Of a DNA stretch of 64,000 bases, positions 35,270 to 36,648 are shown piece after piece. Both the position numbers and the translations under genes were made by a program. Numbering within the stretch: the first letter of the stretch is position 1; every line of letters starts with the position of its first letter. Origin of the DNA: Dictyostelium discoideum (lineage: Eukaryota); assembly GCA_000004695.1 (NCBI GenBank), contig CM000154.2:96001-160000 (forward strand), read 5' to 3'. A model generated the notes under the pieces. That model searched no databases, was not told where the DNA came from, and worked only from the letters and a program-made list of their open reading frames with translations.

Positions 35270-35945
35270 TTAATTTATATTATTTGTCATTTTTAAAATT
35301 TCATCAATTATTAAATTTGTATTAAAAGATTGATAATGAATTAAAGTTGGATCTATGTTGAATTGAGTTGTTTTTTTAATTTGATCTTTTTCAATAGGTG
35401 AAAACTCGACTATAATTGTTTTTTGTTTACCAAAGTGACTAATTAAATAACCCATTTCAAGTAATAAACTTAAATTTGGTTGTACCATTTCTTGATAGGC
35501 CTCAAAAAAATTATTAGTCTTTTTAAAAAATCTATTTTCATATGTAATTAAAATAATGCAAAAATCACATTTCTTAACTTCTTTTTCAATGGTATCTATT
35601 GATTTAGTAAATTCGCTATTATCATTTTGTGGTACTATTATCATATCGATTTTTAATTTAATTAACATTTCTTTTATAAAATTATTTGATTTTTCATTAT
35701 CACTATGTGCAATATACGCTCTTGCATTTCTCTTTGTAGTAATAATTGAATTTGTTGTATTAATAGTATTTGTAGTTGTGGTTGTTTTCTTTAATTGATT
35801 AAAGTTTGGTGGTATATATAAATTACTATTTCTAAATTCTAAATCTAAATCAACAACCTTATTATTATTTTTATTAAAATGGTATATGATTGGTTGATCT
35901 AAATCTGGATCTCTCCTCTTCTAAATTTGTAATATTATAATTATA

Positions 35946-36028
<83 letters not shown>

Positions 36029-36648
36029 CTAATAAAGGTATATTGTGGGATAAACTAGTTCTTAAAGGTGGGGTTGTTATATTAATAGATTCTTTATAAT
36101 TGGTGGGTGAAGTTTTTAATTTTTTAAATGGTGTCTCTGGATGTGATTGTTCTGTTGGTGGTTCTTCATTTTTTATTAATGAGGAAGATGTATTTAAAGG
36201 TGAACCTATTGTTTCAATGGGTGGTGATGGTATATTATCCTTATCATTTTTAAAAAAATCCCAAATATTTTTTTTTCTTTCAATTTCCTTTTTACTTCCA
36301 ATACCCCCTTCACTATTGTTCTATATTTAATTAATTAGTGTTTTAGTTGGATTTTGATTTTAATTTTGTTTTTTTGTTTTTTTTTTTCTCCATACAATTA
36401 ATTTATAAATAAATAATTTGTTTAAAACATACTAAACCTTCTAATATTTTTTCAATTTCAATATTTTTAGGTTGTGTTTGAATGGTACCAGTGGATAAAT
36501 AAAGAGTAATTGTAATTTTTTGGTAATCAATTAAAATTTTAAAAAAGATTTTATTTGGTTGTTCATTTGAGTTTAAAAATATGACCTGACTAAAAATAGT
36601 TTTCAAATGTTCATATGCCGATTCTGGTGTGATAAAAATTTTTTTCAT
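35270..36648 (-). CDS. Gene carrying a bacterial-type TIR-like nucleotide-binding domain (COG4271 / 'TIR-like' family). Exon 1 is 36433-36648, a candidate middle exon is about 35878-36320, and the TIR-like domain ORF is 35270-35920
   Basis: The frame 35270-35920 encodes ...KRNARAYIAHSDNEKSNNFIKEMLIKLKIDMIIVPQNDN...EKEVKKCDFCIILITYENRFF...QPNLSLLLEMGYLISHFGKQKTIIVEFSPIE.... This matches the family hallmarks: a [VA][FY]I[VA]HG.D.E strand, an acidic DFxIxLLT segment, and the NVxFExG[YF]FIGxLGRxR motif. The track ORF (Met at 35668) truncates the domain. Exon 1 (MKKIFITPESAYEHL...EKILEGL) ends at a GTATGT donor in phase 0. Two acceptors are both in phase 0: one at 36321 (start of a stop-free 147-codon low-complexity plus poly-N stretch) and one at 35921 (start of the TIR-like frame). 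The middle stretch is in the -1 frame relative to the TIR-like ORF. So the model is either exon 1 plus exon 3 across a 512-nt intron, or a three-exon gene carrying a frameshift next to the (ATT)n microsatellite. Confidence 0.5.
35945..36027. repeat. (ATT)n microsatellite (~28 units)
   Basis: A perfect trinucleotide array sits between the TIR-like ORF and the upstream low-complexity exon. It reads as poly-N in the upstream frame and poly-I in the TIR frame. Confidence 0.9.

Follow-up and report, generated by a model that had tools for sequence, protein, structure and literature searches.

The locus on the minus strand at 35270-36648 of the window, the 64,000-nt stretch of Dictyostelium discoideum AX4 chromosome 5 that was analyzed here, is very probably tirD, a single two-exon Dictyostelium gene that carries a C-terminal CAP12/Pycsar-type TIR domain and looks broken through an extra G at position 35913 in AX4. 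Its structure was resolved from nine versions of the locus, which represent four species or lineages. The gene and its correct structure are already known from Culbertson et al. (bioRxiv 10.64898/2026.04.30.722052), who in May 2026 described TirD at the same locus as the product of a single transcript from a gene with one intron, with a poly-Asn linker ahead of a CAP12/Pycsar TIR domain at the C terminus and with the residue E360, and in whose work tirD comprises the two AX4 models DDB_G0287321 and DDB_G0287437. The present analysis makes small additions to this picture, namely, the exact lesion in AX4 and the disruptive alleles that three further genomes carry independently.

Structure and neighborhood of tirD

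Exon 1 (36433-36648, minus strand) starts with the ATG at 36648, has 72 codons that encode a small conserved N-terminal domain, and runs into a GTATGT donor, just as a sequence-only reading of the window had described it. The sole intron (36321-36432, minus strand) is 112 nt long, extends from GTATGT to ATATAG, and is in phase 0. Exon 2 (35270-36320, minus strand) comprises 349 codons and a stop after removal of G35913 and encodes the linker, the poly-Asn tract, and the TIR domain, so that translation without this base gives a product of 421 aa composed of the conserved N-terminal domain, a poly-Asn linker, and the TIR domain. The linker (35735-36320, minus strand) is a low-complexity segment rich in Ser, Thr, Pro, and Asn, includes the poly-Asn tract, and is poorly conserved and indel-rich. 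The tract is encoded on the gene strand by a pure (AAT)27 microsatellite (35946-36026, minus strand), which had been noticed before with a count of about 28 units; the site of the frameshift lies elsewhere.

As the AX4 sequence stands, exon 2 is read in two frames. For the middle stretch, the acceptor, the absence of stops from 36320 onward, and the poly-Asn tract had been recognized correctly; the acceptor reads ATATAG, the stretch has a length of 148 codons, and it ends at the TAA at 35876-35874 (minus strand). Translation confirmed that it is offset by one nucleotide from the TIR frame (35270-35920, minus strand), which is a 216-codon stop-free frame with the reported motifs ARAYIAHSDNE, CDFCIILITYEN, and LLLEMGYLISHFGKQKTIIVEF. 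As had also been pointed out, the list of open reading frames gives just the Met-initiated part of the latter, 132 aa at 35270-35668 (minus strand). This part is the AX4 model DDB_G0287321, in which the TIR domain lacks its first strand and helix. By exact look-up, the 132-aa fragment is Q54KI8, whose UniProt label is already TIR-like, and neither the 421-aa product nor the 220-aa product of the shifted frame was present in the protein collection.

Comparison with other genomes supports the two-exon structure. Exon 2 is uninterrupted in five genomes from four lineages, being a single open reading frame of 349 codons in assembly L008, 350 in L004, 406 in L002, 486 in L007, and 313 in L003; in D. 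citrinum and D. dimigraforme, it is one continuous open reading frame. The GTATGT donor is kept in all five intact orthologs, together with the TATAG acceptor and the phase, and intron lengths range from 78 to 126 nt. Exon 1 is 78-99% identical across eight orthologs, and in eight other genomes both exon 1 and the TIR frame are conserved and tirD occupies a syntenic position, flanked by the TPT gene and the Ctr/Gfo genes. After deletion of G35913, the protein encoded in the window has the same length of 421 aa as that of L008 and differs from it at three residues. Considering its spliceosomal intron, host-like composition, synteny, intact open reading frames in five genomes, and dN/dS of <1, tirD is a bona fide eukaryotic gene.

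The sequence-only reading had offered, as one of its alternatives, a gene of two exons separated by a 512-nt intron, in which 35921 is the acceptor and the poly-Asn stretch is spliced out. An AG does precede 35920 and would give a phase-0 join. However, the TAG at 35923-35921 (minus strand) is in frame solely through the extra G, and the supposed intron is a conserved in-frame coding stretch in five genomes with dN/dS of <1, in which the indels between the intact sequences of L008 and cfZ (assembly L004; 36335-35700) are all multiples of three. The splice sites of the 112-nt intron are conserved, and this short intron is backed by RNA-seq and by cDNA PCR, in which a single product spanning both AX4 genes was obtained, indicating one mRNA that runs through the middle stretch (bioRxiv 10.64898/2026.04.30.722052). 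The proposed acceptor at 35921 is spurious, and a 512-nt intron is hardly credible. The same preprint reports that the expression of tirD is very low, that part of the exon has no RNA-seq coverage, and that a minority of RNA-seq reads suggest other splice donors.

The neighboring gene at 37013-38305 (plus strand) carries GFO_IDH_MocA Pfam domains, as had been stated, but the description of it as "bacterial-like" finds no support: it had no non-dictyostelid nucleotide match and was labeled Eukaryota in the published survey (bioRxiv 10.64898/2026.04.30.722052). The neighbors of tirD, which encode a TPT transporter, the Gfo/Idh/MocA oxidoreductase, and a Ctr copper transporter, are amoebal genes. 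An adjacent CD-NTase or pyrimidine cyclase that would make up a CBASS or Pycsar system is absent among them, and no bacterial or immune genes near tirD were reported in the preprint.

The extra G in the AX4 reference

At position 35913 (minus strand; C on the plus strand), AX4 alone carries an additional G and reads GAGGAGAGATCC versus GAGGA-AGATCC; the sequence expected without it is GAGGAAGATCC. The two-gene annotation, with DDB_G0287437 and DDB_G0287321 as separate models, exists because this base shifts the frame and brings the premature TAA (35874-35876, minus strand) into frame. Culbertson et al. (bioRxiv 10.64898/2026.04.30.722052) ascribed the split to "a stop codon," whereas we trace it to a 1-nt insertion, with the stop lying downstream, amid AX4-only differences that resemble miscalls. 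They also reported that AX2 and other isolates are free of the interruption.

Of the earlier alternatives, a reference frameshift, associated with the microsatellite and in a gene of three exons, came closest. The frameshift in the reference is there, but the gene has two exons and the microsatellite is uninvolved. The lesion, a single G, lies 33 nt beyond the pure repeat, whose length varies among other strains and is identical, at (AAT)27, in the AX4 reference and the intact L008 allele. Slippage of the microsatellite is thus ruled out as its cause. Recent pseudogenization, the third alternative, is not supported for D. discoideum as a species: the D. discoideum assembly L008, otherwise near-identical, carries an undamaged gene for 421 aa.

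Over the 1.7-kb locus, L008 and the AX4 window show only four base differences, of which G35913 is one, and these four AX4-only differences fall within 250 nt. G35913 was seen in only one, AX4, of the six D. discoideum-clade sequences aligned over the 36335-35700 stretch. At the other three sites, 36131, 36140, and 36161 (minus strand), AX4 has a C that is absent from the five other clade sequences wherever the base is present; they have A throughout, except for G at 36131 in strains W and cfY (D. cf. discoideum Y), and cfZ has a 3-nt deletion there. The substitutions put Pro for Thr at residues 136, 133, and 126, respectively, and are probably reference miscalls. A second AX4-only cluster at 32089-32218, with 13 substitutions in 130 nt, has the same C-for-A bias, and all eight other genomes, including those of two other species, disagree with AX4 in it. 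From its chromosome-level status, the AX4-identical neighbors of tirD, and the matching 421-aa/E360 model, we infer that L008 is an assembly of AX2. As laboratory strains, AX2 and AX4 are close relatives, and this much true divergence between them is therefore unexpected. Since it lies inside a cluster of AX4-only base differences, G35913 most likely reflects a miscalled base in the reference, not a true mutation of AX4.

It is quite unlikely that the G is real in AX4 and marks a frameshift allele of tirD that arose in the AX3/AX4 laboratory lineage. In that case, AX4 would make a truncated N-terminal product of 220 aa, and the TIR domain would be untranslated or produced from an internal Met only. 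The reference itself reads so, and the independent disruptive alleles in strains R and W and in D. cf. discoideum Y indicate that loss of tirD is tolerated. This reading would also fit the knock-outs, which have no defect in growth or development, and the published experiments and validation were done in AX2 and not in AX4 (bioRxiv 10.64898/2026.04.30.722052). However, it would have to explain why the four AX4-only differences are packed into an otherwise identical locus with the same microsatellite length, and the second C-for-A cluster, opposed by all eight genomes, is the signature of local miscalls. The close kinship of AX2 and AX4 likewise weighs against it.

The TIR domain and the N-terminal domain

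The proposed assignment of the domain to a TIR-like, PF10137/COG4271-class family was borne out by the Pfam HMM search. The 35273-35920 frame (minus strand) matched PF10137 (CAP12/Pycsar TIR) with an E value of 3.6e-13 and 50 bits, above the gathering cut-off of 24.7, and residues 69-172 of the frame (35405-35716, minus strand) aligned with profile positions 3-99 of 119; the precomputed Pfam label of P0012 is also PF10137. In PADLOC, the TIR domain matched the PDC-S35, CBASS TIR effector, and PycTIR models. The best of these matches, to PDC-S35 (E = 3.8e-12, profile positions 66-201 of 245), is to an uncharacterized candidate defense protein that, like TirD, is short and has about 65 aa ahead of the TIR domain; exon 1 gave no match to the PDC-S35 models. 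An earlier link to both CBASS and Thoeris stands for the former, given the CBASS/Pycsar TIR family PF10137, but not for the latter, because the Thoeris ThsB family PF08937 gave no match. Neither PF08937 nor the canonical TIR families PF01582 and PF13676 were listed in the Pfam HMM search even at an E value of ≤10. PF10137 represents the effector TIR of CBASS (Cap12) and Pycsar, and Thoeris ThsB belongs to the separate family PF08937. The NCBIfam search of the TirD segments gave no matches, and no STING, SAVED, or cNMP-binding domain was found in the three segments with Pfam, NCBIfam, and PADLOC.

The GAA codon at 35456-35458 (minus strand) encodes the glutamate of LLLEMGY, residue 360 in the 421-aa model, which corresponds in position to the catalytic glutamate of bacterial Cap12 TIR domains. 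This residue is invariant in five orthologs and in the alignment with P0013-P0015, and P0015 serves as the bridge that aligns it to the FE(F/L)G motif of the Cap12 chains 7un8 and 9lmq. Culbertson et al. named it E360 and reported it as conserved (bioRxiv 10.64898/2026.04.30.722052). The first strand has diverged but is alignable: TirD has AYIAHSDN against the canonical hhIVHG(H/R)(N/D), keeping the His and Asn, with Gly replaced by Ser and His/Arg by Asp, and P0013-P0015 retain VFIVHG(H/R)N.

An AF2 model of the TIR domain, of low confidence (pLDDT 55.7, from a shallow alignment), had as its top PDB matches the TIR-STING structures 9lmq and 9lmr (E = 4e-3, probability 1.0, TMq 0.53-0.58), followed by the TIR domains of SPARTA, TLR, and SARM1. 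Agreement of an AlphaFold model with a TIR fold was reported as confident in the preprint (bioRxiv 10.64898/2026.04.30.722052). PDB sequence searches with the TirD TIR domain, whether run with one sequence or with a profile, gave chance-level matches only, and the link to Cap12 in the PDB was reached through the bacterial-like P0015. Word-indexed searches with exon 1 plus the TIR domain, the TIR profile, and the exon-1 profile returned P0001 or P0012 only, or nothing; they missed even each other's obvious matches, and their silence therefore says little about bacterial relatives. In an exhaustive search, the nearest non-TirD sequences were 26-30% identical, and the best of them (26% identity, E = 1e-5) was the TirC-type P0013, which is probably the TirC ortholog of D. 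cf. discoideum.

The domain encoded by exon 1 had no Pfam match in any of the eight orthologs, no PDB profile match, and no homolog in the large databases, and its AF2 model, of low confidence (pLDDT 56, shallow alignment), had no significant fold match. It has been said to show a "partial KH" resemblance (bioRxiv 10.64898/2026.04.30.722052). A likeness to the TBP-like N-terminal domain of RNase HIII, considered because of the motif hTIThY.S/TG..hQ, was dropped, as Pfam, PDB, and fold searches lent it no support.

The TirC paralog belongs to the same TIR family and shares with TirD the layout of an N-terminal element, a poly-Asn linker, and a C-terminal TIR domain. In contrast to TirD, it has a hydrophobic N-terminal helix instead of the exon-1 domain, retains the VFIVHGHN and NVIFEFGYLIGKFGR motifs in canonical form, and is a potent, toxic, filament-forming NADase (bioRxiv 10.64898/2026.04.30.722052). 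Purified TirD and its truncations did not process NAD+, with or without PEG, under study in the same work. With the bacterial Cap12/TIR-STING proteins (SfTIR-STING; 7un8, 9lmq, and 9lmr) and PycTIR, TirD shares PF10137 and the (F/L)E(F/L/M)G glutamate, and its low-confidence model gave its best structural match to TIR-STING. Unlike these, it has no STING, SAVED, or cNMP-binding sensor and no cyclase or operon partner; instead, it has an intron, poly-Asn, and a GC content of about 20%, and no NADase activity was detected (bioRxiv 10.64898/2026.04.30.722052).

Natural alleles, origin, and possible function of tirD

Disruptive lesions were found in three of the eight non-reference genomes. Strain W has a nonsense change from TCA to TAA, strain R has +1 and -2 indels, and D. 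cf. discoideum Y has a 28-nt deletion inside the TIR domain and a frameshift after the poly-Asn tract. The gene losses described in the preprint concern tirB and tirC (bioRxiv 10.64898/2026.04.30.722052). By the NG86 method, which gives rough values, dN/dS was <1 in all pairs and segments for which dS could be measured, at 0.25-0.74 overall and 0.39-0.73 in the linker. With three lesioned genomes and fairly high dN/dS, tirD may be under relaxed constraint.

These lesions and the moderately high dN/dS, together with the absence of NADase activity, the very low expression, and the lack of a knock-out phenotype (bioRxiv 10.64898/2026.04.30.722052), could also mean that tirD is a relic of horizontal transfer that is decaying across the D. 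discoideum clade and that the intact copies have not yet been hit. We consider such decay unlikely. Open reading frames of 313-486 codons persist in four lineages despite a genome of about 22% GC, in which stops arise easily; exon 1 and the core of the TIR domain, including Glu360, are well conserved; and dN/dS stays below 1 wherever dS can be measured. The origin of tirD has been placed at the base of the genus (bioRxiv 10.64898/2026.04.30.722052). Furthermore, the indel of strain R sits in an A-run and could be an assembly artifact, and immune genes under balancing selection typically have frequent null alleles as well.

The bacterial origin of the domain, suggested by the sequence-only reading, is the conclusion of the published phylogeny, according to which the CAP12/Pycsar TIR domain was horizontally acquired (bioRxiv 10.64898/2026.04.30.722052). 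Judged by the identity of just 26-30% to the nearest non-TirD sequences, the acquisition does not appear to be recent on the scale of the genus. The TIR domain would go back to an anti-phage effector TIR of prokaryotes that entered at the base of Dictyostelia, and a duplication of tirC would have given rise to tirD. TirD keeps Glu360 at the catalytic position but has diverged elsewhere, for example, from VFIVHGHN to AYIAHSDN in the first strand. In yeast, TirD self-assembled and was mildly toxic, both independently of Glu360, and knock-outs grew and developed normally (bioRxiv 10.64898/2026.04.30.722052). The mechanism thought most likely is that TirD acts via TIR-driven oligomerization, as a scaffold or a conditionally activated signaling protein and not as a constitutive NADase. 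Its conserved N-terminal domain may serve in regulation or in the recognition of a partner and ligand.

A further and speculative proposal, to which we give low credence, is that TirD is a naturally polymorphic amoebal immune-type protein, with functional alleles and null alleles of independent origin segregating together in wild populations of the D. discoideum clade. The diverged TIR domain, which lacks NADase activity, and the conserved N-terminal domain, for which no relative could be detected outside Dictyostelium, would then have a biochemistry other than the ancestral NAD+ depletion, such as scaffold-type signaling or the use of another substrate, set off when the N-terminal domain recognizes a ligand or partner.

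For the annotation of D. discoideum, the AX4 models DDB_G0287321 and DDB_G0287437 should be merged. Work on tirD that is based on AX4, such as CRISPR design, expression quantification, and use of Q54KI8, rests on a fragment without the start of the TIR domain. If sequencing reads confirm the independent null alleles of the three other genomes, these alleles suggest that tirD can be dispensed with or is polymorphic in nature, which bears on the absent knock-out phenotype. The case for domestication, with an experimental correction of the gene model, has already been made (bioRxiv 10.64898/2026.04.30.722052), and a bacterial anti-phage TIR domain that was captured, duplicated, and domesticated by a social amoeba would be a tractable model of how a toxic prokaryotic immune module is taken over.

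Gene structure of tirD

The stretch belongs to chromosome 5 of Dictyostelium discoideum AX4. The minus-strand frame that a sequence-only reading had called TIR-like spans 35273-35920, is free of stops over 216 codons and contains ARAYIAHSDNE, CDFCIILITYEN and LLLEMGYLISHFGKQKTIIVEF. By exact look-up, its Met-initiated 132-aa ORF (35270-35668, minus strand) is DDB_G0287321 (Q54KI8), named by UniProt 'CD-NTase-associated protein 12/Pycsar effector protein TIR domain-containing protein'. As also read at first, a clean first exon of 72 codons (36648-36433) is followed by GTATGT, and the acceptor ATATAG opens a low-complexity and poly-Asn stretch from 36320, which ends at a TAA (35876-35874) and lies 1 nt out of frame with the TIR-like sequence. 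A pure (AAT)27 tract occupies 36026-35946 on the same strand.

We located the syntenic loci of eight other assemblies (three from D. discoideum, two from D. cf. discoideum, two from D. citrinum, and one from D. dimigraforme) through orthologues of the neighbouring TPT transporter gene (in AX4, DDB_G0287319, 33877-34923, plus strand, exact look-up). In five of the eight, linker, poly-Asn and TIR form a single uninterrupted ORF from the acceptor to the stop, with lengths of 349, 350, 406, 486, and 313 codons, and all five intact loci keep the intron (GTATGT donor, TATAG acceptor, phase 0, 78-126 nt). Among six aligned D. discoideum-clade sequences, G35913 is present in AX4 alone, and deleting it in silico gives a 421-aa protein (72 + 349) with the LLLEMGY glutamate at position 360. 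Because the ORF is continuous in five loci, the intron is conserved and removal of the AX4-only base gives 421 aa, we conclude from sequence comparison that tirD is a two-exon gene. The acceptor at 35921, which had been read as opening the TIR frame, arises only through the frame shift in the AX4 sequence. One option raised at first was that the reference carries a microsatellite-associated frameshift within a three-exon gene; the frameshift stands, the gene has two exons, and the microsatellite is ruled out as the cause, since the repeat has the same length in AX4 and in D. discoideum GCA_054883475.1 (L008).

The locus has been named tirD by Culbertson et al. (bioRxiv 10.64898/2026.04.30.722052), who report that it is annotated in AX4 as two genes, DDB_G0287437 and DDB_G0287321, owing to a stop codon, and that AX2 and other isolates have one tirD gene with one intron. 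In their data, RNA-seq backs the intron and cDNA PCR across both AX4 genes gives one product, in support of a single intron and one transcript. Their E360 numbering matches exactly our independently derived 421-aa model. The initial observation is confirmed, and its interpretation holds in part. What was noticed is genuine and of biological interest, and it has already been published together with the solution of the frame problem (bioRxiv 10.64898/2026.04.30.722052).

The frameshift in the AX4 reference and variation at the locus

At 35913 a single nucleotide is inserted, which puts a TAA in frame 37 nt downstream, and either an error in the reference or a true AX4 allele could account for it. 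Across the 1.7-kb locus, the chromosome-level L008 differs from the AX4 window by only four bases: C-to-A on the gene strand at 36161, 36140, and 36131, and the missing G at 35913. Over 11 kb the two differ at 28 places, and the differences other than homopolymer length are confined to two tight clusters, where C or G is peculiar to AX4 and L008 has A or T. One cluster comprises the tirD differences. The other holds 13 substitutions in 130 nt (32089-32218), where AX4 alone reads C (or T) and 8 of 8 other genomes read A, for example TTCCCCCACTCCCATTT versus TTCACACACTCACACTT; the genomes siding with L008 include D. citrinum and D. dimigraforme and represent four species or lineages. On this pattern, base-calling errors probably account for the 32089-32218 cluster. 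Such agreement against AX4 is the mark of local miscalls in the 2005 reference; true divergence of closely related lab strains would look different. We consider it very likely that G35913 is a reference error, and the three accompanying differences, which turn Thr126, Thr133, and Thr136 into Pro, are probable miscalls.

Three other genomes carry independent disruptive tirD alleles. In one D. discoideum strain (L006, locus 6262-7643) a nonsense substitution, TCA to TAA, interrupts the linker, another (L005, 6328-7686) has +1 in an A-run and -2 before the poly-Asn, and D. cf. discoideum Y (L001, 6001-7351) lacks 28 nt within the TIR core and also changes frame after the poly-Asn. The deposited models (405, 384, and 338 aa, respectively) appear to skip these lesions via invented introns and probably conceal null alleles. 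Misassembly could explain the A-run indel; it is an improbable source of the nonsense substitution and of the 28-nt deletion. Rough Nei-Gojobori dN/dS values were 0.22-0.73 in exon 1, 0.39-0.73 in the linker, and 0.25-0.74 in the TIR, so constraint on tirD is present and weak, consistent with either an immune-type gene that evolves fast or one whose constraint is partly relaxed. One D. citrinum locus (L007, gene-sense 1379-1975) has an in-frame insertion of about 90 poly-Asn residues inside the TIR, between MIIVPTE and IDYESMNIIEKEVKKCDF; the other D. citrinum strain has just NNNN at this point.

The neighbouring Gfo/Idh/MocA oxidoreductase gene (DDB_G0287323, 37013-38305, plus strand, exact look-up) is intact in five relatives, is reduced to degraded fragments in D. 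cf. discoideum Z (L004, 7917-8490) and is absent from the syntenic interval in both D. citrinum genomes (L002, 7636-8429; L007, 7878-8592), so that this gene, too, is polymorphic for presence and absence. A table of the preprint labels it Eukaryota, without a non-dictyostelid nucleotide match (bioRxiv 10.64898/2026.04.30.722052).

TIR family and possible function of TirD

The TIR-like assignment was borne out by Pfam PF10137 (CAP12/Pycsar effector TIR; E=3.6e-13; score 50 bits, cut-off 24.7), and the PADLOC matches were PDC-S35, CBASS TIR-effector and PycTIR models. The CBASS/Pycsar-type family thus holds, and the earlier mention of Thoeris is slightly off because ThsB-type and canonical TIR models gave no match in the HMM search. 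When 1.84 billion representatives were scanned exhaustively with HMMER, no more than three relatives came up besides TirD itself, at 26-30% identity. One, P0013 (D. cf. discoideum ACTFIY_000936, on the 5.06-Mb contig of L001), is another Dictyostelium protein whose TIR is of the PF10137 type; it begins with a hydrophobic helix, contains poly-Asn, keeps the canonical motifs VFIVHGHN / NVIFEFGYLIGKFGR, and is probably the orthologue of TirC, the NADase. The other two are metagenomic proteins; the gene for one lies next to a Por_Secre_tail (PF18962) gene, with no neighbouring cyclase, on a 3.9-kb metagenomic contig. Aligned with these three, TirD retains the (F/L)E(F/L/M)G glutamate and has a diverged strand-1 motif (AYIAHSDN for VFIVHGHN). 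With the bacterial-like P0015, one of the three, as a bridge, this glutamate could be matched to FEFG in the solved Cap12 chains 7un8 and 9lmq. The best PDB matches of a low-confidence AlphaFold model (pLDDT 55.7) were TIR-STING cryo-EM structures.

Exon 1 is the best-conserved part of tirD (78-99% identity). Pfam, PDB profile and database searches found no relatives of it, and its structure model, of poor quality, supports no named fold. The word-indexed protein search was erratic: one query returned P0001 without P0012, another P0012 without P0001, and the exon-1 profile neither, though each contains stretches identical to the queries. Its negatives for low-complexity proteins of AT-rich genomes call for caution. 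TirB and some TirD homologues have been described as having in common a small N-terminal domain 'resembling a partial KH domain' (bioRxiv 10.64898/2026.04.30.722052).

According to the same preprint (bioRxiv 10.64898/2026.04.30.722052), TirB, TirC, and TirD are paralogues nested in bacterial and archaeal CAP12/Pycsar TIRs, near SfTIR-STING; tirC is traced to the root of Dictyostelia, a duplication at the root of the genus produced tirD, and no bacterial or immune genes lie nearby. The catalytic-position glutamate is conserved, purified TirD and its truncations did not cleave NAD+, TirD in yeast self-assembled and was mildly toxic, independently of E360, and tirD knock-outs grew and developed normally.

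Gene structure, TIR family membership, the conserved glutamate, self-assembly, and the lack of a sensor domain, operon partners and in vitro NADase activity are shown here or in the preprint. In fold and assembly TirD would resemble a Cap12-type TIR. It belongs to no CBASS or Pycsar system. We suggest that oligomerisation through the TIR would let TirD act as a scaffold or as a signalling protein that is activated conditionally, that its conserved N-terminal domain would supply regulation or recognition, and that the NADase chemistry of its ancestors may be lost.
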